Source: Candidatus Latescibacterota bacterium
GTDB lineage: Bacteria > Latescibacterota > UBA2968 > GCA-2709665
Length of the DNA: 64,000 nt
Assembly (NCBI GenBank): GCA_965222075.1
Contig: OZ244937.1
Span: 5,248,001-5,312,000, forward strand
Direction of reading: 5' to 3'
Shown: in pieces, positions 5,547 to 55,620 of the stretch
How positions within the stretch are numbered: the first letter of the stretch is position 1
How the letters are laid out: each line of letters begins with the position of its first letter
Notes under the pieces: generated by a model
What the model was told of the DNA's origin: nothing
The model's input: only the letters and a program-made list of their open reading frames with translations
Database searches by the model: none
Program-made: the position numbers and the translations under genes

Positions 5547-8348
5547 ATGGCGCTTGAGCCCTGGTATAAAATCGTAACGCTCCGCAAGGAAGTGCGGGAA
5601 GGCCGTTCGTTCAGCCCGGACGAGTTCGCCATCGCGATGGAACAGGTGGTCGCCAGGACCGCGCCGGAGGACTACAGCGATCCGGCGCAGTTCTTTTCGC
5701 GCACGTGCTTCACGCGTGCGTTGAAGGAGCATGCCGGTATGGTTCTTCGGCGGCTTTCCGGCAAGACCGGGAACACGGCGCCGGTTCTGACGCTGATCAC
5801 CCAATTCGGCGGTGGCAAGACGCACACCCTCACCGCGCTTTATCACCTCGCCAACGCTGGCGCGGAGGCGTCCAGGTTCCCCGGTGTGGCCGATCTGCTG
5901 ACTGAGGCCGGGATAGCAGAAGTACCCTCTGCCCGCGTGGGCGTCTTTGTGGGCAATGCCTGGGACCCGGCGGAGGGGCGGGAGACGCCCTGGATTGATC
6001 TGGCTCGCCAGCTGGCGGGCGAGCAGGGTGTTGCCGCGCTTGGCGCTGCTGCGCGGACCACACCGCCGGGAACCGAGGCACTGGCCAGGGTGTTCGCGGC
6101 TGCGGAGGCGCCCGTGTTGCTGCTGTTCGACGAGGTGCTCAACTTTGTCAACCGCCACCGGGGCATGGCCGAGGGCTTCCACGCCTTCCTTCAGAACCTG
6201 ACCGTCGCCGTCACCGGTACGACCCGGGCGGCTGCGATTATCAGCCTGCCGCGCAGCCAGGTGGAAATGACCGATTGGGATCAGCAGTGGCAGGACCGGA
6301 TTACCAAGGTGGTCCGCCGCGTCGCGCGCGACCTGATCGCCAATGACGAATCCGAGATCAGCGAGGTGGTGCGCCGGCGGCTGTTCGAGGATCTCGGCAA
6401 AGCGCGCATTCGCAAGAGAGTCGCCAGGATCTACGCGGACTGGTGCTTTGAACGGACCGCCCGCCTGCCCTCCGAGTGGCTGGCGGTGGATACCGCGACG
6501 ACGGAGGGCAGGGCGAGAGAGTTTCTGCGGGGCCGATTCGAGGCGTGCTATCCGTTCCATCCTGCGACCCTTTCGGTTTTTCAGCGGAAGTGGCGCGCGC
6601 TACCCCAGTTTCAGCAGACCCGGGGCGCGCTGGCCATGCTGGCGCAATGGATCTCCTGGGCCGCGCACGAGCAGTTTAAGAAGGCGCGCACGGAGCCGCT
6701 GATTACGCTGGGGTCGGCGCCGCTGGACGTTTCCGAGTTTCGTGCCGTGGTCCTGGGCCAGTTGGGTGAATCCAGGCTGGATGCGGCGATTGATGCCGAT
6801 CTCGCGGGGCCGATGGCGCATGCCAGATCCCTGGATGTGGACGCTAAGGGGGCTCTGCGCGATATCCACCGCCGCGTGGGCACGGCGATCCTGTTCGAGT
6901 CCTCCGGTGGACAGGTGGACAAGGTGGCCCACCTGCCGGAGTTGCGCTTCGCGCTTGGCGAGCCCGAGGTCGATACGACGACGATTGACAATGCTGCGAC
7001 GGACCTGGAAAGGTCCGGGTTCTTCATCCGCAGGGTCGGGACGGACGGCTATCGCATCCATCACCAGGCGACCTTGAAGAAGGTCGTCAGTGACCGGCAG
7101 GCATCGCTCGATGAAGACACGGAGATCAGGCCGGCGATCCGCAAGCTCATCGAGGATGCGTTCAAATCCGGCGCAACCCTTCCGGTTGTTTGCTTCCCGG
7201 GGGATAGCACCGAGGTCCAGGATTCGCCGAGTCTAAAGCTGATCGTCCTCGACCCCGAGACCGGGTGGACGCCCGTCAGCCAGGTGAGCGAGCGCATCGG
7301 CAATTGGACCACGGAGCGGGGCAATTCGCCACGGCTTTACCCGGGTTCGCTGGTCTGGTGTGCGAGAAAACCGGGGCGGGAGCTTCGCCAGAAGGTTGAG
7401 TTGTGGCTCGCGTGGCAGCGCGTGGCTGGCGAGGTGGCCGAGGGCGTTCTCGGCGCGGAATTCGACCGCGCGGATCGTGTGGGAGTTCAAGCACAGGTCA
7501 GAGACGCGCATGAAGCGGCCAGGGACGAAGTATGGGCGAGCTATCGCTTCGCAGTGCTGGGGGACAGCCAGGAGGAGCATGGGCTCAAGACCATTGACCT
7601 CGGCGCCGGCCACGCAAGTACAGGTGAGACCCTGTGCGGACGGATTATCGGCGCGTTGAAGGCCGAGGCCCTGCTCAACGAGTCCGTTGGGGCGGGCTAT
7701 ATTGACCGACATTGGCCGCCGGCGTTAAAGGAATCCGGGGCCTGGCCTCTCACCAGCCTGCGTCAAAGCTTCCTGAATGGATCGCTCACACGGCTGATTG
7801 ACCCGGACGCGATCCTTCGCCGCAAGATCGTTGAGTTCGTGGGAAGTGGAGATTTCGGCCTGGCATCCGGTGCGAAGGATGACGGTCAATATGAGCGGCT
7901 GTGGCATGCGGAGTCAATCGGGGTCGAGGAAGTGGCGTTTGAGGCCCGTGTGTTTTTGTTGACCAAAGCCAAAGCCGAGGAACTCAAAACGACACCTGAA
8001 GATCCGCCACAGCCGCAACCGGAGCCTGCGCCAGGTCCAGTCCCGGAACCCGAGCCGGAGCCTGAACCGGGAGCCGGTCCCGAGCCGAGTCCGGGCACTC
8101 AGAAAACAACACTTCGGCTTTCCGGCACCGTTCCCCCCGAGGTCTGGAACCGGCTTGGAACCAGGCTATTGCCCAAGCTGCGCTCCGGGGACGACCTCAG
8201 CGTGGGTATTGACTTCTGCGTGAGTGTCGGCTCGGCGTCCGCCAGGAACCTGGAGGAAGAGCTGCAGCAGATTCTGGATGATCTCAGGCTGGGCGACCGG
8301 GTTCGTGTCGAAAGATCCGAAACGAAAGGGTCGAGAAATAACGAATGA
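5547..8348 (+). CDS. DUF499 ATPase
   Basis: LEPWYK..LRKEV, TQFGGGKTH, LLFDE, YPFHP and FQQTRG motifs; Pro/Glu linker near the C-terminus. Confidence 0.9.
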   Translation: MALEPWYKIVTLRKEVREGRSFSPDEFAIAMEQVVARTAPEDYSDPAQFFSRTCFTRALKEHAGMVLRRLSGKTGNTAPVLTLITQFGGGKTHTLTALYHLANAGAEASRFPGVADLLTEAGIAEVPSARVGVFVGNAWDPAEGRETPWIDLARQLAGEQGVAALGAAARTTPPGTEALARVFAAAEAPVLLLFDEVLNFVNRHRGMAEGFHAFLQNLTVAVTGTTRAAAIISLPRSQVEMTDWDQQWQDRITKVVRRVARDLIANDESEISEVVRRRLFEDLGKARIRKRVARIYADWCFERTARLPSEWLAVDTATTEGRAREFLRGRFEACYPFHPATLSVFQRKWRALPQFQQTRGALAMLAQWISWAAHEQFKKARTEPLITLGSAPLDVSEFRAVVLGQLGESRLDAAIDADLAGPMAHARSLDVDAKGALRDIHRRVGTAILFESSGGQVDKVAHLPELRFALGEPEVDTTTIDNAATDLERSGFFIRRVGTDGYRIHHQATLKKVVSDRQASLDEDTEIRPAIRKLIEDAFKSGATLPVVCFPGDSTEVQDSPSLKLIVLDPETGWTPVSQVSERIGNWTTERGNSPRLYPGSLVWCARKPGRELRQKVELWLAWQRVAGEVAEGVLGAEFDRADRVGVQAQVRDAHEAARDEVWASYRFAVLGDSQEEHGLKTIDLGAGHASTGETLCGRIIGALKAEALLNESVGAGYIDRHWPPALKESGAWPLTSLRQSFLNGSLTRLIDPDAILRRKIVEFVGSGDFGLASGAKDDGQYERLWHAESIGVEEVAFEARVFLLTKAKAEELKTTPEDPPQPQPEPAPGPVPEPEPEPEPGAGPEPSPGTQKTTLRLSGTVPPEVWNRLGTRLLPKLRSGDDLSVGIDFCVSVGSASARNLEEELQQILDDLRLGDRVRVERSETKGSRNNE

Positions 8349-8401
8349 CGCGATAGCAAGGAGCAAGCCGTTGTTATCCTTTCTAAACAGGAGGTTACCG
8401 G

Positions 8402-9394
8402 ATGCCCAAACCGCTTTATCAACTGGACTGGCAGCGCCAGGAGCAGCCGGTTCTTTCGGCGATGACGACCGATGAGGACTGGTGTAACGTACAGCTCTAC
8501 AACCCCACGGTGGTGCGACACGGGAATCGGTACCTGATGTGGTACGTTGGCAACAGCAGCGCCGCGCGGGTAAGCGACATGGAGATCGGACTGGCCGAGT
8601 CGGACGACGGCATCCACTTCACGCCCCATCCGGGCAACCCGATCCTCAGGCAGGAGGATCTGCCGGCGGGGACGTGTTGGCAGACACCCCACGTGATGTT
8701 CGATCCTGACGAGGACCGCTTCAAGATGTGGTTCATCATGTCCGCTGGCGAGTGGGATCCGGAAACGGGCGGGGTCACCATTGACATGCATGACCTGGGG
8801 TTTGCGACCAGCTCCGACGGTCTGGCATGGGAGGTCCACCCGGAGCCGCTCTACGCCGGGGGGCGCCGGCCCTGCGTTATCAAGGATGGGCCCGGGGCCT
8901 ACCGGATGTGGATGGGAGCGGCGCCGGACTGGAAGGACGCGGAGGTGACCGATGCGGTGTTCCGGTTCGTGTCGACGGATGGGCTGGCCTGGAAACGGGA
9001 TCCGGAGCCGGTGATAACGGCTGAGGATGACGACCGGATCGGAAGCGTGGTATACCCCTTCGTATTGCAAACCGAGGATGGTTATGTGATGTGGTACAGC
9101 TGCCACGTGGCCGGTGGAATATTCGAAGTCTTTGCGTCGACGTCTGACGACGGCCTGGCGTGGACGCATCATCTGGACACGCCCGCTCTGCCAGCCACGC
9201 GGGACCGCAACGATTACGACGGGCGGTATACCTCTACGCCGTGTGTGCTGGATGACGGGGACCGGTACCTGATGTATTACTGCACGCGGGACTGGGGCAA
9301 TCTCTACCGGACGGGCGACGGGACGATCAGGACTGACAGCGAGGGTATCTACCGTCACATCGGCGTGGCTACTGTGGCAAAGGACCGGTTGTAG
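8402..9394 (+). CDS. Five-bladed beta-propeller glycosidase-like protein (GH32/43/130 clan-like)
   Basis: Repeated P.V....(Y/F).MW(Y/F)...A.S.DG..W blades. Confidence 0.7.
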   Translation: MPKPLYQLDWQRQEQPVLSAMTTDEDWCNVQLYNPTVVRHGNRYLMWYVGNSSAARVSDMEIGLAESDDGIHFTPHPGNPILRQEDLPAGTCWQTPHVMFDPDEDRFKMWFIMSAGEWDPETGGVTIDMHDLGFATSSDGLAWEVHPEPLYAGGRRPCVIKDGPGAYRMWMGAAPDWKDAEVTDAVFRFVSTDGLAWKRDPEPVITAEDDDRIGSVVYPFVLQTEDGYVMWYSCHVAGGIFEVFASTSDDGLAWTHHLDTPALPATRDRNDYDGRYTSTPCVLDDGDRYLMYYCTRDWGNLYRTGDGTIRTDSEGIYRHIGVATVAKDRL

Positions 9395-44569: not shown

Positions 44570-45622
44570 GTGATCCATCTGAACAATTCAGGGTCGGCTT
44601 ATGATATTGGTCTGCAGCACGGGCGTTCCTGCCCTGCCGCCGTTGGCATGGCGTATGAGGCCTGGGTGCAACTTGAGGGGGTTGATCCTTCGTGGGTCGA
44701 GGGCGGCATTCGATTTGTGGAGGACAGGCTGAAACGGAGCTTTCCGGAGGTATTGCGTGAGATGCGGGGTATCGCCGACGGCTCCGGCGTGCTGTACGAG
44801 AATATCTTGACCCTGAACTGTCTGGATGCGATTCTTCCTGCCGGAAAAGGGTGGCCCCGCTGCTCGAACATCGGATTCAAGGATTCGGACGCAGGGGTGC
44901 TGTTGGGTAAGACGGCCGACTGGGAGGCCACGGGATCGGAGAATTTTGCGGCCTGGCAGCGGTACCAGCCCGAGGCCGATCAGGGGTATGCGTTTATCCA
45001 CTACGGCTGCGCCGGGACCCTCTGGAGCGAGGGTGGGCTGAACGAAGCCGGTCTGGGGATGGTCCTCAACGGCCTGCCCGGCTCGGGGGCTGGACCGGAC
45101 AGCGTGCACTGGTTGTGCCTGACCCGGGGGGTGCTGCAACATTGCCGAAGTGTGCAGGATGCGCTGGATTTCCTGGGCCGATACGATGTGATGTACTGGG
45201 GGGTGAACCTGACGCTGGCCGATGTGAGTGGGGATATGGCCTTTGTGGAGGTCGTGCCGGGCGCCCGGGCCGTTCGCAGGCCGGAGGGAGATTATCTGAT
45301 TCACACCAACCACTGTGTCTGCCCGGAAACGCTGGAACGGCAGCCCGAGAAGGACGTGCCCTCCGCCTTCGGAGTCGCGGGCTTGCGGGAGAACAGCCGG
45401 GCCCGGTATAAGACGCTGGAACGGATCGTGCCGGGGGCCCCCCGGACCGTGGCAGGGATGCAAGCGTTGCTTCGCGACCGGTCCATGCCAGGGCCCATCA
45501 GCCAGAGCGGCGAAGCGGGGATGCGGACGGTCTACGCCATGGTTGTCGCCCCTGCGCAGGGGAAGATGTGGGGCGTGGAAGGGTTTCCGCCGGATATGTC
45601 CTTTGCCGCATATCAGATTTAG
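44570..45622 (+). CDS. Peptidase C45 family Ntn hydrolase
   Basis: IGLQHG, EMRGIADG, RCS nucleophile, GLNEAGL and HTNH motifs. Confidence 0.8.
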   Translation: MIHLNNSGSAYDIGLQHGRSCPAAVGMAYEAWVQLEGVDPSWVEGGIRFVEDRLKRSFPEVLREMRGIADGSGVLYENILTLNCLDAILPAGKGWPRCSNIGFKDSDAGVLLGKTADWEATGSENFAAWQRYQPEADQGYAFIHYGCAGTLWSEGGLNEAGLGMVLNGLPGSGAGPDSVHWLCLTRGVLQHCRSVQDALDFLGRYDVMYWGVNLTLADVSGDMAFVEVVPGARAVRRPEGDYLIHTNHCVCPETLERQPEKDVPSAFGVAGLRENSRARYKTLERIVPGAPRTVAGMQALLRDRSMPGPISQSGEAGMRTVYAMVVAPAQGKMWGVEGFPPDMSFAAYQI

Positions 45623-45755
45623 GGTAAAGTTCGCCACTGGCGGTATGCTGCATTGCTTGATTCTGAATTGAAAACCAGCTGTATTCTCCTATGCAGAGAA
45701 AGCTCCTTGCGGATACGGCCAACGTTTCCGCCGGCTGTGAACCTGCGCAGCAGGC

Positions 45756-46006
45756 GCGGCGACCCAGTGATTATAATAGCGTGTGCCATCGTCGGGAGTC
45801 CCGCGTTCTGCAGCCGCCTTTAACTCGTCTGCGAGTGCTGTGGCCCACTCCTTCCAGGTGAAGTGACCCTGTTCAGAGAGCTTCACGGCCAGGGCGAATG
45901 CGTGGGCTTGCCAAGGTTCGGCGAAAATCGGCCCCTCCTCGTCTTGAGGCAAGGGTGGCAGAGCCTCAATTCGTTTGGCATCAAGGTTAGTGTCAGGCTG
46001 GCTCAA
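45756..46006 (-). pseudogene. Truncated nitrile hydratase accessory protein
   Basis: PIFAEPWQAHAFALAVKL..GHFTWKEW...YYNHWVAA, then similarity ends. Confidence 0.8.
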
Positions 46007-46290
46007 GGTATTCCTCCCATAGATCAATGTAGACGATATCCCGTGGTGAGGCTCGTTCTCCCCAAAGTTCCTGAGAATCGAAGCGCACCGTGTATACGTG
46101 CTGCGGGAAGTTACCGAGCCGCTGGCCGTTCTCGTCGGTGTCCTGGAGAGCCCAGACGCCATTGTCTCTCAAAACGGTCCCTCGTTTTCCCCGGGCGTAT
46201 CGAGGTACACGTGTATGACCCCGCGGATGCAGGTTGCGGACACGGACCTCGTCGTCGACGCTGAAGCTCGGAGCAGGTGTAGGGGGGGCA
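45993..46290 (-). pseudogene. nthB: C-terminal fragment of nitrile hydratase beta subunit
   Basis: GHTRVPRYARGKRG...HVYTVRF...ELWG...IDLWEEYLEPA. Confidence 0.8.
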
Positions 46291-46324
46291 GGCTTATTGC
46301 CCTCCGGAGGAGGAAGGAGCGTCG

Positions 46325-46477
46325 GCAGTGGCTGGCCCGGTCTCCAGGGCTGTCGTCGACGTGCTTTGAGAACAAGCAGCGGGGGCAGTGGTTTCGATAG
46401 CTCCCGTTGACCAAAGGATACACTTCCGCATGACAGAATTCGCAAACGAATCCGGTGTTCTCATCTTTCCTGTCCAT
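46325..46477 (-). pseudogene. Truncated RNHCP zinc-binding domain protein
   Basis: FVCEFC...SYRNHCPRCLFSKHVDDSPGDRASHC. Confidence 0.8.
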
Positions 46478-46656
46478 GCCCCTTCTCTATTCAGATGAAT
46501 CAATCATCTCTCCTTTTACTATGCAAATATGGATTCCCTGCATGGCGTCTAATGTCTCACGGTTTGCTGATTCCGATATTCCGTTGCCAGGATTCCATAC
46601 TCGTGACAGACCGCCATGGCCGTTCATACCCGCATGCATCGCGAGAGAGATTCCGC

Positions 46657-47031
46657 TCAAACCCCTTCCCGGAAACGCGTGACGATGGATCGCGCACCGC
46701 TGATCAAGAATTCGTCATCGGTTCCGATTGCAAGAAATCGGAACCCTTGCTCGATGTATCTGAACGCCGAATCGGCATCCGCCGTGTACGCGACTCCGGG
46801 GACCACTCCGTGGCGCTCGCAGGCGTTGAGAACCTTTTGAAATGCCCGCTGCAGGTCGGGATTGTCGAAGTCGAGGTGGCTACCATCGACGGATGTGCTG
46901 CCGATATGCTCAATTTCGAGGGCTGCATCCCCGAAGACAGCGAGAAGTCCTCTCTTCTCAGCATCGTATTTGTGTCGCCACTTCGGGTCGAATTCTGACA
47001 ACTCCCATATGACTGTCTCATCCACTGGCAT
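46657..47031 (-). pseudogene. In-frame chimera: GrpB N-terminus plus HpcH/HpaI aldolase C-terminus
   Basis: FDPKW...IEHIGSTSV joined to FDNPDLQRAFQKVLNACERHG..PG...YIEQGFRFLAIGTD. Confidence 0.7.
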
Positions 47032-47085
47032 TTCTCACTGTCTGCGAATGTACGGAGATCGCTGAATCATTCGTCACCCAATTTC

Positions 47086-47177
47086 AGGTAACGTTCTCGC
47101 GGTTTGCGAACGCCGACAGGCGTTGCCGCAGGCCAAGGCGCCTGAAAGGCGGCGCAGCGAAAACCGTGCTGTTATCG
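47086..47177 (-). other. attC-like site 7
   Basis: AGGTAAC...GGTTTGCG...CGAAAACC...GTTATCG imperfect hairpin. Confidence 0.8.
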
Positions 47178-47190
47178 GAAGTAGACTCCA

Positions 47191-47958
47191 TTAGGCCTGC
47201 GCCGTCACAACTGGTTGAAAATAGCCAGACTGCTCAGGCGCATGCCAGACGATTTTCGTAAATCCGGCTGACTCCAGGGCCGAAGTGAGCTCGTTGCGTC
47301 TTATTGCCCTGTAGCGAGTCCTGGCCTCCTTCACTCGCCATCCACTCGATGCTTGGCTCATTATGAAAAGCCGGACTCGATAGGTATCTGATTCCTTGGA
47401 CCAGTCCCAGATCTGAAATGTTATTGCTCCTCGCTCGGGTACACCATCGAGATTCGGAGCCATAAACGATGGTCTTTCGGCGAGTAACCGATCGTAATCG
47501 CGAATACTGGCAACAAACCGTCCTTTGTCAGTCAGTACGTGCCGGATGCTTCGGAGAGCGAGAGTTAAATCTTCGTCAGTCAAAAGGTGCGGTAAGGAAT
47601 TGTCACAGCTGATCACGACATCGAATTTCTGGCCGAATACACATTCCAGCTCACGAACATCGGCAACAGCGAACCGTATGTTCAGCCCTCGCTTAGCTGC
47701 TTCTGATTTCGCCCTGGCAATCGCCTTCGGGCTAAGATCGGACGCGAAGACTTCGTATCCTCGTTGCGCCAAGCCAATTGCCTGGGTGCCTATTCCGCAT
47801 GAACAGTCCAGGACAACCGATGCATTCGCTGAAGACTCACATTGAATCAACTGATCCAGTGCATACGACTGCCGTTCGATTGCCGATTCCCAGTCCGCGT
47901 AAACGTGATGGTAATCAGCAGCTAAATCATCGTAAAAGCGTTTGACGGATTCGCTCAC
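47191..47958 (-). CDS. Class I SAM methyltransferase (cassette 7)
   Basis: VLDCSCGIG and DNSLPH motifs; GTG start at 47958. Confidence 0.85.
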   Translation of the reverse strand: MSESVKRFYDDLAADYHHVYADWESAIERQSYALDQLIQCESSANASVVLDCSCGIGTQAIGLAQRGYEVFASDLSPKAIARAKSEAAKRGLNIRFAVADVRELECVFGQKFDVVISCDNSLPHLLTDEDLTLALRSIRHVLTDKGRFVASIRDYDRLLAERPSFMAPNLDGVPERGAITFQIWDWSKESDTYRVRLFIMSQASSGWRVKEARTRYRAIRRNELTSALESAGFTKIVWHAPEQSGYFQPVVTAQA

Positions 47959-47987
47959 GTTGATGACTCTCTCAACGAGTCCATTTC

Positions 47988-48128
47988 CGATAACGTTCCC
48001 GGTGTGTGCGAACCTGCCGAGCGGGCGCGGCGGTTGCAACAGGGGTTTCGATTAGCAAGCGCCGTGACCGCGAAGGAAGGTTGGGCGATGGGGCGAATGC
48101 CCCAAAGCCGCAGCCGGTCGTATTAGCC
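47988..48128 (-). other. attC-like site 6 (long, degenerate core)
   Basis: CGATAAC...ATTAGCC with an inner CCGG..TGCG/CGCA.CCGG stem. Confidence 0.65.
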
Positions 48129-48186
48129 GTCCGAGCAGCCCACAGACTGCCCTTGCCAGGGTCGGCAAGGCCATCGTCTTTGACCT

Positions 48187-48744
48187 TCACGCTCTTCGAG
48201 TCTGTTTCATATCATGAGCGAATGGGTATAGTTCCCCGAAGTCCGCAGATTCTGGGCCAAATAGCTCTGCCGCTTGTCTGAAATGGACGGCCCGAACTTC
48301 CACAATCCTGCTATTCGGATCCGGATCAGCTCTGTCCTCGGTTTTTCGAACCACATCAGCCCACGATACGACTCGCACATGCTCTGGGTGCGGGAAGTGG
48401 GGCAACCTGGGGCGGTCGTTTCGAGAGACGCAGTAGTACATCCCTATCGGATGAAGTTCCCCCAGATTGCTTCTCGTTTCCTCCAATAGCTCGCGACGAC
48501 CAGCCTCCTCCCAATTCTCGTTGGGTTCGAGGGTGCCTCCCGGCAAGACCCATTTCCCGTTGGACCGCTTGGTCACGAGACAATGACTGTCGGAGACGAA
48601 AGGAATGATATAAGAGGAGCCACAAATAGTCGAAGCCAGTTCATTTTCGAATTTGCGGAAGTGGACATTGGGACGTAGTTGCCCATGCTCCTCACTCAGG
48701 GTGGGGTATTTCGAGATGAGCTTGTCGAACTGCGTACGGTCCAT
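48187..48744 (-). CDS. NUDIX hydrolase (cassette 6)
   Basis: LPGGTLEPNENWEEAGRRELLEET Nudix box. Confidence 0.85.
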   Translation of the reverse strand: MDRTQFDKLISKYPTLSEEHGQLRPNVHFRKFENELASTICGSSYIIPFVSDSHCLVTKRSNGKWVLPGGTLEPNENWEEAGRRELLEETRSNLGELHPIGMYYCVSRNDRPRLPHFPHPEHVRVVSWADVVRKTEDRADPDPNSRIVEVRAVHFRQAAELFGPESADFGELYPFAHDMKQTRRA

Positions 48745-48811
48745 GTTAAAGGCTACGTGTGGTTTTCTGGCGGCGCGTCCTGCGCCGCCCCTGTCTTGCG
48801 GGCTGCTTCGC

Positions 48812-48892
48812 GGCTAACGTATCGCCGTGCCCGAGCCGCGCAGCGGTTGCGCGAAGGGCGTAAGCCCGAAGCCGGGCACGGACGTGTTAGCC
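48812..48892 (-). other. attC-like site 5
   Basis: GGCTAAC..CCGTGCCCG...CGGGCACGG..GTTAGCC; very similar to 52200-52283. Confidence 0.85.
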
Positions 48893-48903
48893 GAAGTATG
48901 AAT

Positions 48904-49569
48904 TCACTTGAGGTTGCGTATTGTGCTCGGCAACTCGTCAAGATCGTCAACAACCGCATCCACAATCTCAGGCACCTCCCAGTACTCATCTCGCTTCCAA
49001 ATCGCTTTCATCCCGAAGGACTTGGCGCCCCGAACGTCGGCCTCCGGGTTGTCGCCAATCATGATAGCCTGATCTGGTGAGACGCCCAGGTTGTCGGTCG
49101 CACGACGGAAGATCTCCGCATCCGGTTTTGCGACCCCTTCTGCTTCCGAGATCAACATTGTGTCGAAATAGCGAGAGATTCCCAAACCATCAATCTTCGG
49201 CTGCTGCGAATCAACTCGCCCGTTCGTAACGAGCCCCATCTTTAAACCTTGTTGCCTGAGTATGGTAAGAGTCTGATGTGCCTTAGGAAACGGAACGCAT
49301 ATATGGGGAAAGTATGTCAGGAAGTCCTCCAGCAACCTCTGCCAAATACCGGGTGAGAGAGCAAAGTCGCGTTCAATGCTCCTAAACAGCCCCTCCTTCT
49401 CGGCGTGGCCATGTGCGTCCAACTCAATGACTCGCTCCATGTATTCGGCAAATGGAAGAGATTGAAGATCATTTGCTAGTCGTTCGACCTGAATATGCAG
49501 GTACACTCTAAGGCTACTGATCCGATCCAATAGCGTTCCGTCAAGATCGAAGAGCGCTGCTTGAAACAT
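48904..49569 (-). CDS. HAD-family hydrolase (cassette 5)
   Basis: FDLDGTL, VTNG, KPD and IGDNPEAD motifs. Confidence 0.9.
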   Translation of the reverse strand: MFQAALFDLDGTLLDRISSLRVYLHIQVERLANDLQSLPFAEYMERVIELDAHGHAEKEGLFRSIERDFALSPGIWQRLLEDFLTYFPHICVPFPKAHQTLTILRQQGLKMGLVTNGRVDSQQPKIDGLGISRYFDTMLISEAEGVAKPDAEIFRRATDNLGVSPDQAIMIGDNPEADVRGAKSFGMKAIWKRDEYWEVPEIVDAVVDDLDELPSTIRNLK

Positions 49570-49595
49570 TTGTACCTCCAGTCGGACTCCATTTC

Positions 49596-49665
49596 GGCTA
49601 ACGGTCTCGCGGGCTGCGAACCCGCGCAGCGGGTTGGTGCGGAGGCGCAGCCCGACGTGTTAGGT
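49596..49665 (-). other. attC-like site 4
   Basis: GGCTAAC..CGGGCTGCG...CGCAGCCCG..GTTAGGT. Confidence 0.85.
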
Positions 49666-49691
49666 GCAGTGGCATTCAGATTCGTGTCTGG

Positions 49692-50138
49692 CTATTTCAG
49701 GCTCTTCCGAAAGAAGACCTCACTTGCAGGACCCGTGGGAGTCCCTGTCAGAATACCGCAGTCTTCGAAACCCATATGGCGGTGCCATTTCTGAGGGTCC
49801 AATTCATCCAGCTGAGAGGAACTAAGTAGATATGTGAATCCCTTCTCTCGGAGATAACATTCTAGAAAACCAAGCATAGACCGCCCCACACCCTGTCTTT
49901 GATACTTCTTCAAGACTATGATCCCGCTGATGTAGGGCGCGCTATAGTGATGGCCCTGCCAGATGAACTGAAATTCCAGGACACCAACCGGCTCTCCATC
50001 CAATTCCGCAACGATAAACTCCTTTAGCCGGATCTTCGTTTCCACTACATCCACGGTTTCTATTGAAAGCGTATGCTTGCACCATTTGGCGTCCTCGTCC
50101 TTCGCAAACCTCACGACCGTGTCACTAGACCTTGTCAT
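49692..50138 (-). CDS. GNAT acetyltransferase (cassette 4)
   Basis: YQRQGVG and WHRHMGF motifs. Confidence 0.8.
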   Translation of the reverse strand: MTRSSDTVVRFAKDEDAKWCKHTLSIETVDVVETKIRLKEFIVAELDGEPVGVLEFQFIWQGHHYSAPYISGIIVLKKYQRQGVGRSMLGFLECYLREKGFTYLLSSSQLDELDPQKWHRHMGFEDCGILTGTPTGPASEVFFRKSLK

Positions 50139-50200
50139 GAAAGTACCAGCCTTTGTAAGAGATGGAGGACTTCGCCGAGAGGTCGAGACTGCGCCATTGC

Positions 50201-50298
50201 GCCTAACGTTCCCGCCACTTGCGAGCCCCGAGCTTGTCGAGGGGTTGCCGACAGGACAAGGCGCCGTAGGCGACGCAGCGCAAAACGCTGTGTTGGGC
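50201..50298 (-). other. attC-like site 3
   Basis: GCCTAAC...TTGCG...CGCAA...GTTGGGC. Confidence 0.75.
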
Positions 50299-50326
50299 GA
50301 AGGAGCACGTCTTTTAGGGTATCATC

Positions 50327-50551
50327 CTATGCTTCGAGAAACTCCTCTGTTGTTACCCCAGCTTGCTTCAAGATTGCAGACAAGGTTCCTTCCGGTAAAT
50401 CCCCAGGATGGTTGGGGATCGTCGTTCGGCACCGGGTAGCAGGATTCCACCAGATTTCATGGCTCCCTCGTGCATGCCGATCAAACTCAAATCCCAACCG
50501 TCTCAGTTTTCCAGTTATTTGTCGATAGGTGAAACCTGCAAGACGTCCCAT
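50327..50551 (-). CDS. hicA: HicA toxin
   Basis: LGFEFDRHARGSHEIW...IPNHPGDLPEGTLSAILKQAG. Confidence 0.9.
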   Translation of the reverse strand: MGRLAGFTYRQITGKLRRLGFEFDRHARGSHEIWWNPATRCRTTIPNHPGDLPEGTLSAILKQAGVTTEEFLEA

Positions 50552-50796
50552 CAGGCTCCTACCAGTATGTCCAGTTCAACAACCTCAGTATCCAGCGTTT
50601 GCAATCCTTCTGGGAGAGGATCACCGTGTTCACGGTAGGATTCAATCAGTTTTCGTGCCACATCCTGTGCAATCTCAGTTGTTTCGGCCACTGTTCTGCC
50701 TTGAGCAACTAAACCAGGAAAGCTATCCGAAGTAGCTAAAAATTGGCCGTTTTCAACTTTCTGCACTTGAAGATGCAATCTATATTCTTCTGACAC
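50551..50796 (-). CDS. hicB: HicB-like antitoxin
   Basis: FPGLVAQGRTVAET...EHGDPLP; translationally coupled to hicA. Confidence 0.85.
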   Translation of the reverse strand: MSEEYRLHLQVQKVENGQFLATSDSFPGLVAQGRTVAETTEIAQDVARKLIESYREHGDPLPEGLQTLDTEVVELDILVGA

Positions 50797-50863
50797 GGCT
50801 CATGCTCCTGTTTGGTGAATAAGGTTAGCTTTTTCGCGTCAACAAACCCTGAGAATATTGACG

Positions 50864-51259
50864 TTAAGTTTTTCTATGCATAACTACCTGTTGAGTAACC
50901 CGAAATTTGCAACTTTTATAGAGAGAGGTCAATTCGGGGTCACAAAATAAAGAGACGATATCGATATCAGCTAGTTCCTCAAGAAGTCGCCTGAGCACAG
51001 CTTTTGCAATACCTGTACGATGATCGGGGTGTACTGTTACATCTTCTATATAAGCACGGAAATGCCCGTCTAGCACCGCGCGCGCAAATCCGATCAAGTC
51101 CTCTTCCTTCCAAGCACCCACTGCAGGATTACGGTTAAGAACGTCAGTAATATCCTGTAGAGAACGCTCCGGACACCACTCATTGGCAGCATAAAGACGA
51201 CGTACAGCATCTGCCGGTATAGGATGCTCTTGATGAGTGCGAATCACGTAATTTACCAT
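50864..51259 (-). CDS. GNAT acetyltransferase (cassette 3)
   Basis: LIGFARA, AYIEDVTVHP and GIAK motifs. Confidence 0.8.
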   Translation of the reverse strand: MVNYVIRTHQEHPIPADAVRRLYAANEWCPERSLQDITDVLNRNPAVGAWKEEDLIGFARAVLDGHFRAYIEDVTVHPDHRTGIAKAVLRRLLEELADIDIVSLFCDPELTSLYKSCKFRVTQQVVMHRKT

Positions 51260-51314
51260 TTCAGCGCAGGTATTAATGGAAACCATGGTTGAACAAATAT
51301 TGGTTTGCTCTTTC

Positions 51315-51400
51315 GCCCAACGTTTCCGCGGGCTGCGAACCTGCGAACCAGGTTGGGTCGGAGGTGCGAATGCGCCGCAGTGCAAACTGATGTGTTAGCC
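51315..51400 (-). other. attC-like site 2
   Basis: GCCCAAC...CTGCG...CGCAG...GTTAGCC. Confidence 0.75.
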
Positions 51401-51421
51401 GAAGTCGATCTATTTCCAAGG

Positions 51422-52159
51422 TTACATTTTTCTGACTATGAAGTATGCACGTCTGCCCAGCTCATAGGGCTCGCAATCCAGTGACGAAAAAGTATCGCAC
51501 ACCTCGAAACCCACCTCGGAAAAGAGAAATGTCAACTCTCGAAACCCGTAGACCCGCATAGAGCTTATCTTCGTCTCGGAAATTCCGTTCGCAACCAAAG
51601 TCCATTCAGTATCGATCCGGCTCTCCACGTGTCGGTAGTTCGTGTCCTCCAGGACAACTGTTTCACCTGCTTTGCTCCAACCGCGGAACCGGAGTCTTGG
51701 GAGTATTGTTTCAGCGACGTTGGGAATATCCAGAGCAAACCTCGAACCAGTCTTGAGCGCTCGATGCACTGCCTCAAGGAATCGCCTATTTCCGTCGTCG
51801 TCGAAGTATCCGAAACTTCCCCAAAAACAGAATGCCGCATCGAATGTCTCAATCCAGGACAGATCCCTCATATCCGTCTCGACAAGCTCAAGATCAAGAT
51901 TCGCTTCTTGTGAAGCGGATTGCGCCTCTTGAAGAAGGACTGTCGTGATGTCAACGCCAGTTACTTTATAGCCTCTCTCAGCCAGCGGAATCGCCAATCT
52001 ACCATTGCCACACGGCACATCGAGAACCCGACACCCTGGCTTCAAATTGAGCGCGCGCACGAGAAAGTCTACCTCTTCTGAAGTACGCCCTGCTCGCGAG
52101 TTTCTTTGAACGTCGAGCCAGTTTCCCGCAAAAAAAGTGGTCCACCACTCAGTACTCAC
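51422..52159 (-). CDS. Class I SAM methyltransferase (cassette 2)
   Basis: VLDVPCGNGR and SFGYF motifs; GGAGG RBS before GTG. Confidence 0.85.
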   Translation of the reverse strand: MSTEWWTTFFAGNWLDVQRNSRAGRTSEEVDFLVRALNLKPGCRVLDVPCGNGRLAIPLAERGYKVTGVDITTVLLQEAQSASQEANLDLELVETDMRDLSWIETFDAAFCFWGSFGYFDDDGNRRFLEAVHRALKTGSRFALDIPNVAETILPRLRFRGWSKAGETVVLEDTNYRHVESRIDTEWTLVANGISETKISSMRVYGFRELTFLFSEVGFEVCDTFSSLDCEPYELGRRAYFIVRKM

Positions 52160-52199
52160 GTTTAACCTCCAATCTCGGGTCACTCCAACATTCGATTTC

Positions 52200-52283
52200 A
52201 GCTAACGTTTTCGCCGTGCCCGAACCGCGAAGCGGTTGGGCGAAGGGCCGTATGGCCCGTAGCCGGACACGGACGTGTTAACC
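52200..52283 (-). other. attC-like site 1
   Basis: AGCTAAC..CCGTGCCCG...CGGACACGG..GTTAACC. Confidence 0.85.
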
Positions 52284-52370
52284 GCAGTGGGCATGACACC
52301 AATGAAGCTCGCAAATCAAAATGAGTGCCAAACAGAAAACACGCCAAGAAACTACCCTGGAGATATTGCT

Positions 52371-52889
52371 TCACAAGGTAAAGGAAGTATGCTTTCTCCA
52401 CTTGCCGTTGCGCTCCATCATAAGCCAAACCTCTTCTGCGCGACTCTTCATCGGCAGGTATGATTCAGCATTCGATTGAAATTTCTCGACGATTGCTTCC
52501 AACGCAACTGCATCATCCGCATGTGCTACGGTAAGGTGAGGGTTGACGGAAGAATAAGCCCCTTTGTAGGGTGGGTGGTCCGGAAATTGATTTACCAGAG
52601 CTTGAGTCATTCTTTTGAACTCATTATCGGGCTCCGGATGCAAATAGAGGACACCTGGAAACCTACGCACCTCGACAAGGAAAAAGTCGAACGGATGGAA
52701 ACTCTGAATCACCTCCCGGACTTCAATGACACTGTTTCTGGTGATGGCCTCTCGATCCAGAAACGGATAGAGTAGAGTGATATGGGCAGGGATCCCCGCC
52801 TTGGCTGCGGGATCGTATCTACTTCGATACGCCCCAACCAATTTCTCCGCCTTGGGCACCGGAATTAGGATTGCCGATTCGTCTGGCAT
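52371..52889 (-). CDS. 2'-5' RNA ligase family (2H phosphoesterase) protein (cassette 1)
   Basis: Two HxT motifs: AHITL and PHLTV. Confidence 0.85.
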   Translation of the reverse strand: MPDESAILIPVPKAEKLVGAYRSRYDPAAKAGIPAHITLLYPFLDREAITRNSVIEVREVIQSFHPFDFFLVEVRRFPGVLYLHPEPDNEFKRMTQALVNQFPDHPPYKGAYSSVNPHLTVAHADDAVALEAIVEKFQSNAESYLPMKSRAEEVWLMMERNGKWRKHTSFTL

Positions 52890-52927
52890 TTTGCGAAATC
52901 ACTGGATGGAAACATCTTACCCATTGC

Positions 52928-52965
52928 GGTTAACTACGGGATTACCGAACAGTTACGGTAATACG
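52928..52965 (-). other. attI-like site
   Basis: On the minus strand, ...GTTCGGTAATCCCGTA-GTTAACC opens cassette 1 with no attC hairpin upstream; it lies next to the integrase remnant. Confidence 0.6.
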
Positions 52966-53014
52966 CGCCAGATCTGAGGATTTCCGAACGTTCGGGAACA
53001 TTTTGTTAATATTG

Positions 53015-53399
53015 GTTTTTGCAAGCCCGGTCAAACGCTTTCTGTACCGACCGCCCGGTCACCCGGTCTGGCGCCCGGGAACAGCCATGTTCGGGGTTGA
53101 TATTGGCGCCTGTAGTCTTGAACCGCCTTCTGTGCGACTGTGGAGAGCATCGTGTAACGATCCTTCCGGTGCTTGCCCTGGCGGATATGGAGCAGTTTTC
53201 GATCCCCGTCGATGTCTTCGACCTTCAACCGGACCACTTCACCCAGCCGAAGGCCTCCGGAATAGGTCAACAGCATGATCGCCTGGTGCTTCAGGTTTTC
53301 TACTGCATCCAGTAACCGAAGCACTTCTGCCCGGCTCAACACAGTGGGCAATTTGTGCTCCTTTTTCGGACGGGGCAGGTTTTCAAGAGGATATTCCAT
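53015..53399 (-). pseudogene. intI: Integron-type/XerD-like tyrosine recombinase remnant
   Basis: RPKKEHKLPTVLS, YSGGLRLGE, GKHRKDR and WLFPG, then frameshifted RSVQKAFDRAC. The N-terminal domain and the HxLRH/Tyr region are missing. Confidence 0.8.
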
Positions 53400-53880
53400 T
53401 GAGGTCTTCTCTCGGCATTGCGGCTGAAAAAAGTGGATTGGCTTTGCTTTCAAACAAATCCCGTGCCGTAGAGACCGCTAACGGAGAACAATAAATGAAC
53501 CTGTTGTGAAATTAGTGTCAGATGGGAGAATATCCTTTTTTAAACAGACCTTTCAGGTTGCTGATTTGTTTCAAAACAGACCGTTCAACGCATTCAGAAA
53601 GTACCATATCCGAAGCGCTGAGAACGTGAACCTATTGTATTTTCAGGTCGTCGTATTGCCCCAATAAGGCGCTCACGGGATGGCGGAAGAGGGGCTGTGG
53701 GCGCGTTATCAAGCGCAGACGGTGATACAGGCGGCTCCGGCGGGTGTAGAGGCGTAAGCGCTGACTGAAGTAAAGGGTTGACCGGGGGTGCCCTGCAATA
53801 TATATTTTTCATGACCCCCGTGTTGAGGAACGGTGTCAGTCCGGCGATAATGAACCGATAGCACGCAGAAGGAGCCACCA

Positions 53881-54711
53881 ATGAATGCGAACAAGCCCCC
53901 GCAGACGTCCACGCCCACCTACACCATGGGGTACAGCGACGAGTTTCAGGAGATGCTCAAACACCGCAGCGCGGGCACCCATGCCGCGCACCTGCTCCCA
54001 TACCTCAAGCCCGGTCTCCGCGTTCTCGACTTCGGGTGTGGGCCCGGTACGATTTCGGTGGGGCTCGCACAGGCGGTGGACCCCGGGGAATTGCACGGCA
54101 TCGATATGGAAGCGTCGCAGATCGAGATGGCCCGAACTGCGGCGGCGGCGGGCGGGCACGACAACGCGGTATTCCATACCGGTGATGTGACCGATCTGCC
54201 CTTTGCCAACGACTCGTTCGATGTCGCCCACTGCCACGCCGTGCTCACACACGTTCCGGATACGCAGGCCACCCTGGCCGAGGCGAAGCGGGTGTTGAAA
54301 CCCGGGGGGCTCATCTCCAGCCGGGAACTGATTGGCGCCGCGTCGTTCGTCGATCCCGACCCCGGCGACCGCGGCGAGATGTGGGCGACGTTCTTGAAAC
54401 TGCTCGCGGGCAACGGGGGCCATCCCCAGATGGGGAAGGAACTCAAGCGGGCGTTTCTCGACGCCGGATTCTCGGATATCCGTGCAAGTGCTTCATTCGA
54501 TTCCTACGGCACGACCAGTGACATCGACAGGTTTTATGGGGTCGCCATCGGCTGGTTCTTCGCCCCCGATACTGTGGAAGCGGCCACGAAACACGGGCTG
54601 GCATCTCACGAGCAGTTCGATGACTGGCGCCGGATGCTCGACCAGTGGAAGGATGCCCCTGGTGCATTCGCCACCGTCGCCTGGGGAGAGGCGATCGGAC
54701 GTAAGCCGTAG
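53881..54711 (+). CDS. UbiE-like SAM methyltransferase
   Basis: VLDFGCGPG, LPFANDSFD and RVLKPGG motifs. Confidence 0.9.
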   Translation: MNANKPPQTSTPTYTMGYSDEFQEMLKHRSAGTHAAHLLPYLKPGLRVLDFGCGPGTISVGLAQAVDPGELHGIDMEASQIEMARTAAAAGGHDNAVFHTGDVTDLPFANDSFDVAHCHAVLTHVPDTQATLAEAKRVLKPGGLISSRELIGAASFVDPDPGDRGEMWATFLKLLAGNGGHPQMGKELKRAFLDAGFSDIRASASFDSYGTTSDIDRFYGVAIGWFFAPDTVEAATKHGLASHEQFDDWRRMLDQWKDAPGAFATVAWGEAIGRKP

Positions 54712-55058: not shown

Positions 55059-55466
55059 ATGAGCGGTGAAACAGTGAAGTGGCCGATTGTAGAGCGGTGG
55101 GACAGCCATCCCCTGGACCTGAAGGATCCCCTGGAGCGTTTCAAGCGCTCGGAGTGGAACTACTTTTTGGTTGACCAGGAGTCGGGGGTGCTGATGGGCT
55201 ACTGGCTGGCGGAGGAGGGAGCCGAAGATTTGGGCGGAGACGAGTTCGACGAGGTGATGCACGTTATCGAAGGGAAGCTTTACGTGACCTGTGAGGGAGA
55301 GGCGTATACCGCCGGGCCGGGGGATACGATCGTGGTGCGTCCCGGCCGTCCGACCCGGATCGCCGCACGGGAGTTGACCCGGGCGTTCTTCGTCTGCTAC
55401 TCGATGTCGGACCCGGAGGCGTTCGAGGCGAGGATGCATAAAAGGATGGCGGAGAAGGGGCTGTAG
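55059..55466 (+). CDS. Cupin (EutQ/DUF861-like) protein
   Basis: MGYW, DEVMHVIEG and AGPGD motifs; AGGAG RBS. Confidence 0.75.
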   Translation: MSGETVKWPIVERWDSHPLDLKDPLERFKRSEWNYFLVDQESGVLMGYWLAEEGAEDLGGDEFDEVMHVIEGKLYVTCEGEAYTAGPGDTIVVRPGRPTRIAARELTRAFFVCYSMSDPEAFEARMHKRMAEKGL

Positions 55467-55620
55467 ACCCGTTCTCAGTGTGACATCCAGCGCGAATATA
55501 GGCCCAGAAATCGCCGCATCGCTGAAGTTAATTTTTCTACGATTTAGGGGGGGGTATAAGCCTTTGTTTTTAATGAGACTATGCGCCCCCATTTTTACGA
55601 TGATCCAGGCTGAAAAAAGC

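Follow-up and report, generated by a model that had tools for sequence, protein, structure and literature searches.

The window (the whole stretch of DNA analysed, 64,000 nucleotides) contains at 47080-52290 seven hairpin sites on the + strand between nine small - strand genes, which make up seven cassettes. A preliminary description made from the sequence of the window had pointed out seven AAC...GTT hairpins between small - strand genes, and all seven are recovered by R2, one of two covariance models of hairpin sites (R1 and R2; R2 was built from related sites), which scores six of them at 65-77 bits. The first cassette gene (52371..52889, - strand, as are all cassette genes below) encodes a 2H phosphoesterase of the 2'-5' RNA ligase superfamily (Pfam 2_5_RNA_ligase2, 9.9e-25). 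The attC-like site s7 (52194..52290, + strand, as are all sites below; R2 76.6 bits; fold) separates it from a SAM-dependent methyltransferase gene (51422..52183; Pfam Methyltransf_25, 1.9e-19), beyond which lie site s6 (51309..51407; R2 70.1 bits) and a GNAT acetyltransferase gene (50864..51385; Pfam Acetyltransf_1, 1.2e-9). The listed start of this gene overlaps s6, and the actual start is probably further in. The next two genes are an 81-aa ORF (50551-50796) and, downstream of it, the gene for a HicA toxin (50327-50551; Pfam HicA_toxin, 3.6e-18). From its position, we take the ORF to encode a putative HicB-like antitoxin; Pfam and NCBIfam profile searches gave no family match for it. Because the site model finds no attC-like site between the HicB-like ORF and the GNAT gene (50797-50863), hicA, this ORF and the GNAT gene form a single cassette.

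Site s5 (50195..50305; R2 72.7 bits) is followed by a second GNAT acetyltransferase gene (49692..50138; Pfam Acetyltransf_1, 1e-12), site s4 (49590..49672; R2 73.2 bits; fold), a HAD hydrolase gene (48904..49569; Pfam Hydrolase, 1.2e-27), site s3 (48806..48899; R2 65.4 bits; fold) and a NUDIX hydrolase gene (48187..48744; Pfam NUDIX, 2.8e-14). Site s2 (47982..48135) has a long variable loop and scores 38.6 bits under R2 (E 1.9e-7). A second SAM-dependent methyltransferase gene (47191..48039; Pfam Methyltransf_25, 1.4e-19), whose actual start is probably downstream of the listed TTG, and site s1 (47080..47184; R1 87 bits, R2 71.2 bits; fold) complete the series. The cassette products named in the preliminary description thus stand by Pfam match for the 2H phosphoesterase, both methyltransferases, both GNAT proteins, HicA, HAD and NUDIX, and HicB is the one without a family match. 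A decayed distal cassette region on the - strand (45689..47031; NCBIfam partial matches) carries fragments of a nitrile hydratase accessory protein gene, the C-terminal half of a beta subunit and a C-terminal piece of an HpaI/GarL-type aldolase. At this decayed end of the array, beyond the range of the preliminary description, lies a truncated eighth site on the + strand that retains the 5' arm only (45723..45758; direct-repeat family D2; 7.9 bits, model positions 13-91). The stretch is a genuine gene-cassette array, chromosomal and integron-like, comprising the head and the first seven cassettes.

The first-cassette junction reads GGTTAA|C (52928-52934) and is located in an attI-like region (52922..53003, - strand) that is 86% identical to the post-gene region in the related genome G018 and 81% identical to that in G047. 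The region includes an inverted repeat (52941-52962) and a palindromic box (52984-52995), and has lost by deletion a third conserved box that other copies have. Across 8 copies from 5 genomes, conservation covers the 80 nt right of the junction, up to GTAGTTA, and gives way to divergence beyond; a second attI-like copy in the window's own genome (3535494-3535573) heads another array. The two ends of the first cassette are complementary at 15 of 18 positions; in 5 of 7 adjacent pairs the row maximum is the same-cassette pair, with 13-16 of 18. This complementarity and the 80-nt conservation bear out the attI-like junction proposed earlier at ~52934. The putative attI adjoins a recombinase gene and has its cassette junction at GTT, as in integrons.

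That gene is a remnant of what we call a type I recombinase gene (53003..53395, ORF 53031-53453, - strand), located at the array head and pointing into the array. It matches residues ~175-309 of a 376-aa homologue with 87-90% amino-acid identity to intact homologues and has two internal deletions (DNA alignment to the homologue loci L020/L021). It no longer has the HARP-like and SAM-like domains or the C-terminal 68 residues, which include HxxR, H and the catalytic Tyr. Through the two deletions the gene has lost both ends, and, judged from its sequence, the window copy is catalytically dead. The remnant is an in-place gene, flanked by the attI region and by a conserved upstream region (53440..53685, - strand) that has homology to the upstream region in G047 and G002 and is probably a promoter or regulatory region. 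In proteobacteria, intI is usually divergent from the array, and the I2 helix insertion of IntI is used to recombine folded attC. In the remnant, KDR and WLFPG are spaced by 24 residues, which leaves no room for an IntI-type insertion; the orientation and the spacing agree with the preliminary description of a co-oriented remnant with no extra segment. The genome holds 48-55 sites in at least six arrays and four recombinase remnants. A genome search found no intact type I copy and no IntI, and there is no intact recombinase of any kind beside the array or elsewhere in the genome; the window array is therefore probably a frozen relic and operationally a CALIN.

The R box of the sites pairs TAACG with TGTTA, followed by a long covarying stem with a variable loop and a 4-nt bulge in the 5' arm only. 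In 62 sites from relatives, 89.4% of stem cells are paired as against 73.5% after shuffling, and double changes number 214 as against 84; none of 500 shuffles reaches the observed pairing. In 68 sites from other phyla, the corresponding values are 90.6% and 70.7% for paired cells and 295 and 101 for double changes. Nothing relevant to the hairpin sites was found in Rfam. Each hairpin is located directly past a stop codon, the place of a terminator, so that the hairpins might be read as a family of repeated extragenic palindromes or terminators beside small accessory genes, not as recombination sites. We regard this as highly improbable, since the sites keep one strand polarity across whole arrays, the TAAC/GTTA boxes are conserved and common to attC, and a cassette's ends complement each other. 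Further evidence against it comes from near-identical cassettes (96-99%) in arrays of different genera and from the strict, oriented linkage to one recombinase family described below. In metagenome contigs and shared cassettes, similarity stops at the R boxes, which by itself does not fix which hairpin travels with which gene.

Intact type I proteins are ~370 aa long, with a HARP-like domain at the N-terminus, a core-binding domain of SAM-like type and a catalytic domain; alignments A4 and A5 show no variation in the catalytic residues R, K, HxxR, H and Y. Homologues match the Phage_integrase family PF00589 at 1e-43, and the window copy matches only positions 2-100 of the 172 of this profile. 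The best relative of solved structure for type I proteins is VchIntIA (2a3v), and the alignment to it is split, 25 residues of the query standing against 67 in the chain (~42 missing). The IntI-specific profile TIGR02249 likewise matches in two stretches, skipping approximately profile positions 175-235, and two intact homologues score 214 bits, below the cut-off of 265 (window fragment, 72 bits; best in its own genome, 93 bits). The spacing from KDR to W[LVI]F is 29 residues in 50 of 80 loci of a broad survey (the pattern is unmatched in 22). The lack of the I2 insertion that was predicted from the remnant thus extends to its intact homologues. In a tree from a quick search, whose base is unresolved, IntI, type I and IS91-type recombinases fall into one clade to which Xer does not belong (SH-aLRT 100), and array-linked members are scattered throughout type I. 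By these comparisons, type I proteins are the closest relatives of IntI and have no I2/additional domain. The HARP-like assignment draws on PF07443, which at E<=1 finds 25 of the 34 N-terminal domains (best 2.1e-5), with scores below the Pfam cut-off of 25 bits (18.3 bits for member 1). It also draws on a profile of the N-terminal domain, whose sole significant match in the PDB is the SMARCAL1 HARP domain (4o66, E 8.4e-5); Foldseek with the HARP-like domain gave no match at E<=0.001 and weak ones to 4o66 (E 0.076) and XPB (0.041). HARP homologues recognise DNA structure.

In 61 related genomes, the 85 R2 matches (E<=0.01) all lie within 20 of the 24 loci of type I homologues, and the controls in these genomes, 20 Xer loci and 10 IntI locus pieces, have none; control loci gave no model match in 400 kb. 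The gene points at opposite-strand sites in 18 of the 20 match-bearing loci. The broad survey took in 80 loci across many phyla, Bacillota, Bacteroidota and Archaea among them. All 84 of its matches lie on the opposite strand, downstream of the gene: 84 in 311,878 downstream bases and 0 in 534,032 upstream. Of the 41 broad loci whose downstream DNA extends to 1.5 kb or more, 30 have matches and 11 have none. On a complete Desulfitobacterium chromosome, 12 ORFs in the same orientation come after the gene, and 11 sites are interspersed among them. The linkage of homologues to hairpin arrays that was anticipated earlier is therefore conserved in both sets, and the notion of a separate integron-like class gains support from homologues that have no I2 insertion and show oriented linkage to the same hairpin family.

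The window could instead be an ordinary CALIN, built by a canonical IntI that was later lost, with the remnant a bystander that has no role in cassettes. The lack of any intact recombinase in the genome would fit this, as would the R box, which is the same as that of class 1 attC, and the fact that recombinase-free arrays are common in relatives, 26 of the 42 related genomes with no family match holding at least one site. This reading is quite unlikely because an IntI that scores above the cut-off is found in just 6 of the 61 relatives and four of these 6 hold 0-1 such sites, and because the site matches fall at homologue loci and not at IntI locus pieces. In addition, the attI-like region is conserved along with the type I gene, and in distant phyla every match is downstream of that gene.

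The type I gene might also belong to a site-targeting mobile module, akin to IS91-associated recombinases, that inserts one-way at GTTA boxes of existing arrays and moves no cassettes. IS91-type units occur in this family, with six near-identical copies of 2.5 kb in G007 and three copies in G004, each with a recombinase gene followed by a Y2 transposase gene; among the genomes this arrangement is found only in these two, and an IS91-type unit ends ...CGTTA directly before a cassette. Genomes hold several decayed copies each, some copies (L061, L067, L062) have sites on both sides, and extra fragments of attI plus gene end occur inside arrays (G018b, G047b). In close relatives, most recombinase copies are truncated and several are inside arrays (G020, G007, G003), which also fits a mobile module. 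We nevertheless consider this explanation unlikely. The IS91 transposase is absent from the window's own genome, from the loci of other relatives and from all 80 broad loci (tblastn with the G007 transposase found no Y2 (HUH) transposase in the window, its genome or the broad loci). No upstream site occurs in the broad set, which is not as expected from insertion into array interiors; type I ORFs are intact and full-length in most broad loci, and the IS91-type proteins, which lack the HARP-like domain, make up a single derived clade.

The interpretation that we favour, and hold to be probable, is that the window contains the head of an integron-like array whose integrase belonged to a distinct lineage of type I tyrosine recombinases, the system being dead here. 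Intact relatives at the head of similar arrays, in numerous groups of bacteria and archaea, point to a second, apparently overlooked kind of integron. We found in the literature no published description of an insertion-less subgroup linked to cassette arrays.

From linkage, we infer that the type I protein recombines cassettes at these sites. An intact system would consist of the recombinase gene, a conserved attI with several palindromic boxes and an array of co-oriented, mostly single-gene cassettes, each ending in a folded hairpin site. By analogy with integrons, the recombinase would bind the folded site and carry out a single-strand exchange between its TAA|C / G|TTA box and either attI or another site, thereby inserting or excising cassettes. 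The one-sided bulge may set the polarity, and the HARP-like domain could supply the structure-specific recognition that is the role of I2 in IntI.

We judge it to be an evenly balanced question whether HARP-domain tyrosine recombinases with no I2 act as integrases for a second integron lineage, one that is widespread (Bacillota, Bacteroidota, Nitrospirota, Spirochaetota, Gemmatimonadota-like bacteria and several groups of archaea) and either sister or ancestral to the IntI integrons. In that case, I2 would be dispensable for recombining cassettes at folded hairpins, and I2-free recombination either predates the I2 insertion or arose again via a structure-specific DNA-binding domain and a one-sided bulge in the site. 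IntI-only searching would then be the source, as an artefact, of some of the 'orphan' CALIN arrays and of the seeming rarity of integrons in Gram-positive bacteria.

Classical integrons (class 1, Vibrio chromosomal) likewise have co-oriented cassettes with no promoter and mostly one gene each, TA and acetyltransferase genes among them. There, too, every gene is followed by an imperfect hairpin that folds, with the same outer box (..TAACG / TGTTA..) and one strand polarity throughout, and a conserved attI lies beside the recombinase gene with the junction at GTTA. Type I proteins differ from IntI in lacking ~42 residues at the I2/additional domain, in scoring below the IntI cut-off and in their extra N-terminal HARP-like domain; IntI identity was rejected for them on the first two grounds. 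The sites have a one-arm 4-nt bulge, whereas folded class 1 attC has a symmetric internal loop, and R2 fails to recognise true class 1 attC sites (9.1 and 5.8 bits).

Co-orientation is present at this locus but is not new in itself, since an 'inverted integron-integrase group' with co-oriented integrase and cassettes is already described in Cury 2016 (PMC4889954). In the accounts of inverted ('reverse') integrons, for example in Treponema, and of archaeal integrons, the gene likewise points into the array and attI comes right after its 3' end (PMC4889954; Ghaly 2022, PMC9668308). The integrases treated there match the IntI-specific profile (PMC4889954, PMC9668308), in contrast to the proteins described here, which do not have that segment. 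A CALIN (at least two attC and no IntI nearby) fits the window operationally, with seven sites, if these count as attC, but a non-IntI recombinase remnant and attI still head the array, and intact versions exist in relatives.

The closest IntI homologues that have no insertion were described in IS91/IS3 elements as an 'Integron-like subgroup' in the account of Smyshlyaev, Barabas and Bateman (10.1101/542381). The IS91-type recombinases belong to the same clade as IntI, likewise have no insertion and share 45-51% identity with the array-linked proteins; they differ in their length of ~283 aa, in having no HARP-like domain and in the Y2 (IS91) transposase that comes after them. The six IS91-type units in G007 adjoin arrays, at array heads. 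Type I itself was rejected as an IS91-family accessory recombinase, as no Y2 transposase gene was found in the window, its genome or the 80 broad loci.

XerC and XerD, which act at dif, are likewise tyrosine recombinases with a SAM-like core-binding domain, and the archaeal XerA model scores near its cut-off. Xer identity was rejected for type I proteins, given the scores (XerC 194 against 335, XerD 186 against 330, XerA 218.6 against 220) and the separate clade. No such site occurs at the 20 housekeeping Xer loci of these genomes, and the sites described here are 80-160-nt hairpins with covarying stems, in contrast to 28-bp duplex sites.

The arrangement of a tyrosine recombinase gene, an attI and co-oriented cassettes, each with a polar hairpin at its end, is conserved across phyla, and the array-linked recombinases (type I) lack I2 and carry a HARP-like domain. 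The copy in the window (53003–53395, − strand) is dead. Its ORF (53031–53453) matches the Pfam Phage_integrase profile over only the first 100 of 172 positions, and DNA alignment with intact homologues in related genomes, which are 87–90% identical to the fragment, reveals two internal deletions: one has removed about the first 170 residues, and the other the last 68 residues together with 60–75 nt. The remnant is in its original place, because in the same alignment the flanks of the gene, its upstream sequence and 80 nt downstream, are kept. All four recombinase copies of the window's own genome (G000) are partial, the other three being at 697211–697616, 416072–416347 and 3408628–3408870, and no intact copy was found in that genome. 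It also contains no IntI, the best TIGR02249 score being 93 bits against a cut-off of 265.

Seven cassettes make up the array, in which nine − strand genes (47191–52889) are interspersed with seven + strand hairpin sites (s1–s7), one site terminating each cassette. The genes named in the preliminary description were borne out by Pfam (2H phosphoesterase, two methyltransferases, two GNATs, HicA, HAD and NUDIX); of its hicBA pair, HicA has a Pfam match, while the 81-aa ORF before HicA, a putative HicB by position, has no family match. Three genes (GNAT and the HicB-like/HicA pair) share the cassette between s6 and s5, and no internal site was found there in a search with R2, the broader of two covariance models of the sites. 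About 1.3 kb of gene fragments lie left of the first site (45689–47031, − strand; partial NCBIfam matches): the C-terminal half of nitrile hydratase beta, a nitrile hydratase accessory protein, and a C-terminal aldolase piece fused to another short match. Because these fragments end in a truncated eighth site (45723–45758, + strand; repeat search and R2), the far end of the array is decayed, and the fragment region represents either a cassette in decay or the scar of a deletion. Right of the remnant, a 34-nt direct repeat with 82% identity (53678–53711 and 55444–55477) encloses two + strand genes, a methyltransferase and a cupin-like ORF; neither repeat copy matches R2. An Rfam scan of 45000–54000 returned nothing relevant. 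In tblastx comparisons of the window flanks with the relatives, no conserved chromosomal position was found for the array, and the shared part was limited to the recombinase gene and the region upstream of it. By itself, the window is a modest matter: a defunct platform with seven accessory cassettes of ordinary kind.

The attI-like junction proposed earlier proved sound: the first cassette begins there, and the adjoining 80-nt region recurs. This downstream region (52922–53003) also heads another array of the window's genome (G000 3535494–3535573) and lies behind the recombinase gene in four other genomes (G018, G002, G044 and G047). Alignment of eight copies identifies three palindromic or inverted-repeat boxes, one of which is absent from the window copy, and conservation ends at GTAGTTA, beyond which the copies diverge. 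Directly at the junction, the first cassette opens with a 5′ leader and its gene, not with a hairpin; therefore, the hairpin comes after its gene, as in integrons.

The consensus of the sites, taken from an alignment of six, consists of an outer box ..TAACG paired with TGTTA.. (the R box), an unpaired stretch of four bases confined to the 5′ arm, and a long stem whose 3′ arm bulges by one base. R1, the model built from these six sites, gave 55 sites in the window's own genome (48–55 overall), in at least six arrays with one polarity per array; six arrays located by the site model lie on G000 C1 at 3447678–3471099, 4158602–4174897, 971933–982187, 3527388–3534991, 421331–422632 and 1747287–1750179. 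The pairing covaries in 62 sites from seven genomes (89.4% paired versus 73.5% in shuffles; 214 compensatory cells versus 84), and in the inner helix it does so in nine of nine pairs, with 0 of 500 shuffles as high as observed. Complementarity between the opposite ends of a cassette, compared over 18 nt, is 16, 15, 15, 13 and 13 of 18, and this same-cassette value is the row maximum in five of seven adjacent pairs. A generic attC scanner based on a regular expression and folding was dropped, having recovered one of the seven window sites and being uninformative on arrays beside the IntI genes of relatives.

Sites of this family occur in 43 of 61 related genomes, the recombinase family in 19, where score and identity set it apart from two housekeeping Xer genes, and an IntI above the TIGR02249 cut-off in six. 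Regions of ±10 kb were fetched around 24 family genes and 20 Xer genes of the same genomes, together with 10 pieces around IntI genes. All 85 R2 matches (E ≤ 0.01) fell within 20 of the 24 family loci, and none in the 20 Xer loci or the 10 IntI pieces. The gene is aimed at opposite-strand sites, as it is in the window, in 18 of the 20 site-bearing loci, the two exceptions being L044, which is divergent, and L062, which has same-strand sites on both sides.

Beyond the relatives, a protein search yielded at least 7362 matches at E ≤ 1e-40 among 8000 candidates scored, under generic database names such as 'tyrosine recombinase/integron integrase' and 'XerD'. A broad set of 80 loci (L097–L176), drawn from a scan of species-representative genomes, includes bacteria (Bacillota, Bacteroidota, Nitrospirota/Nitrospinota, Spirochaetota, Ignavibacteriota, Atribacterota, Gemmatimonadota and others) and Archaea (Micrarchaeota, Altarchaeum, Undinarchaeales and Methanosarcinales). 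R2, trained on the window's relatives only, gave 84 matches (E ≤ 0.1) in 31 of these loci, every one downstream of the recombinase gene and on the opposite strand: 84 in 311,878 downstream bases versus 0 in 534,032 upstream bases. The main rival explanation makes the gene part of a module that targets arrays, and it is weakened because upstream sites are completely absent from the broad set. A recombinase that acts on the array it heads is the most likely reading. Sixty-eight broad-set sites covary (90.6% paired versus 70.7% in shuffles), and one complete Desulfitobacterium chromosome carries, behind the gene, 12 ORFs in a common orientation with 11 sites interspersed. Where at least 1.5 kb of downstream sequence is present, 30 of 41 loci have matches. 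The other 39 of the 80 loci, which come from public assemblies, lie on contigs that stop less than 1.5 kb behind the gene; such ends would fit assembly breaks in repeat arrays, and these arrays are therefore probably under-assembled in MAGs. Three loci without matches were inspected by repeat search: repeats of TAAC/GTT-type sites with a different flavour occur in L173 and L164, so that R2 undercounts, and L105 has no more than two palindromes behind the gene.

The array-linked proteins are about 370 aa long, about 100 of these residues forming an additional N-terminal domain. Among solved structures, VchIntIA (2a3v) is their best relative both by sequence (E = 1.1e-41) and by fold (Foldseek rank 1). 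In the sequence match, which is split, 67 chain residues of 2a3v stand opposite 25 query residues, a stretch that we take to be the location of the I2 segment; the absence of the IntI insertion, read earlier from the remnant, accordingly holds in intact homologues. In NCBIfam, the homologues score just below XerA (218.6 bits; cut-off 220) and below IntI (214 bits; cut-off 265). The N-terminal domain has a beta-beta-alpha-beta-beta-alpha-beta fold. Of 34 members, 25 match Pfam HARP at E ≤ 1 (best 2.1e-5, under the curated cut-off), and the domain's own profile has one significant match in the PDB, the HARP substrate-recognition domain of SMARCAL1 (4o66; E = 8.4e-5); Foldseek matches to 4o66 and the N-terminal domain of XPB were weak, none at E ≤ 0.001. 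Going by the title of a PDB entry and a title in the reference list of PMC9371921, HARP domains recognise forked or structured DNA.

A quick maximum-likelihood phylogeny covering 103 rows (73 type I, four IS91-type or short forms, six IntI and 20 Xer; broad-set rows under 300 aa left out) separates an Xer clade from a clade of IntI, type I and the IS91 type (SH-aLRT 100 each). IntI is monophyletic (100), the IS91 type forms one derived clade inside type I (100), and array-linked members are dispersed throughout type I; at its base, this quick tree gives no resolved order of IntI and the early type I branches.

If the recombinase works on the array that it heads, a single-strand exchange would take place at the TAA|C box of a folded site, with attI or a second site as partner. 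The one-sided bulge would mark polarity and supply the central region, the HARP-like domain would sense DNA structure, and the cassettes might be transcribed from the recombinase side. Two cassettes of 1.4–1.5 kb are 96–99% identical across arrays of different genera (L053:4663–6191 and 7640–9058 in G000; also L040, L057 and L046; genomes G000, G018, G002 and G004). Because the platform gene is only about 88% identical, the comparison suggests that single cassettes were recently exchanged. Shared cassettes did not place the crossover: in L053 a deletion truncates the site, and in the L048/L057 pair (82% identical) the similarity begins at TAAC on the left, while on the right it continues for about 35 nt within the following site. 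Four metagenome runs, among those with parts of the window array that are labelled sponge and marine, contain short contigs with single cassettes or sites at 90–99% identity. Loose ends pile up at 48889 (27 contigs, all four runs) and at 52203 (14 contigs, two runs); one contig of 866 nt spans 48875–49603, another stops at 49602, and most joints join look-alike sites. The contigs show modularity at R boxes only, the exchanged unit and strand lying outside what they show.

IS91-type units, each comprising a 283-aa recombinase (45–51% identical to type I) and a Y2 transposase, occur as six near-identical 2.5-kb copies in G007 (L065–L070) and three copies in G004. They correspond to the 'Integron-like subgroup' of tyrosine recombinases in IS91/IS3 elements, which the preprint 10.1101/542381 reports as lacking the IntI insertion. 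Each G007 unit ends ...CGTTA and directly abuts a cassette array in the same orientation; these units may have inserted at a GTTA box or may act as array heads. The Y2 transposase was found neither in the window's own genome nor in the loci of other relatives, and an IS91 transposase in none of the 80 broad loci. In G004, a canonical IntI (464 bits) is followed directly by the IS91-type recombinase and then by the Y2 transposase (L030:505–3961); the recombinase–transposase pair occurs three times (L030, also L032 and L028), twice directly behind an IntI gene or fragment, and a repeat search after the unit revealed no array of either kind beside it.

IntegronFinder defines an integron through an IntI-specific profile. 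Already known are co-oriented integrases, CALINs (attC clusters without an integron integrase) and the insertion-less 'integron-like' recombinases of IS91 elements. Cury 2016 describes a few recombinases between IntI and Xer beside fewer than three attC, judged 'not IntI', and explicitly excludes insertion-less recombinases adjoining attC (PMC4889954); the supplementary tree and tables of that study, with 21 non-IntI recombinases adjoining attC, could bear on the priority of the type I linkage. Searches of open-access papers and bioRxiv preprints (main texts) found no description of insertion-less IntI relatives heading cassette arrays or of a HARP domain on a tyrosine recombinase. The archaeal IntIs of Ghaly 2022 do possess the IntI-specific domain, as reported there (PMC9668308). 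The gain of the I2 helix is presented in Escudero 2020 as the innovation that enabled an Xer-like recombinase to act on folded single-stranded attC, with a 'lack of intermediates' for study of the transition (PMC7790495). If the present reading is true, the I2 question becomes directly testable with a natural family that is IntI's nearest relative, lacks I2, is fused to a HARP-like domain and heads oriented hairpin-cassette arrays in many phyla. The known range of cassette platforms would then widen, including Gram-positive bacteria and more Archaea, and many CALINs could gain a cognate enzyme.

For comparison with ordinary attC, a reference class 1 integron was taken from a plasmid record. 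Two true attC sites of this integron received 9.1 and 5.8 bits from R2 (E = 0.32 and 1.9), which listed no match at the other cassette junctions; therefore, ordinary attC are not recognised by this model. The aligned boxes of class 1 attC and window-type sites are alike (CTAACG...TGTTAG). In a side-by-side folding, however, the class 1 attC has an internal loop, symmetric and about 9 × 9 nt in size, that separates its outer box from its stem, whereas window-type sites have no symmetric loop but a 4-nt bulge on one arm only.
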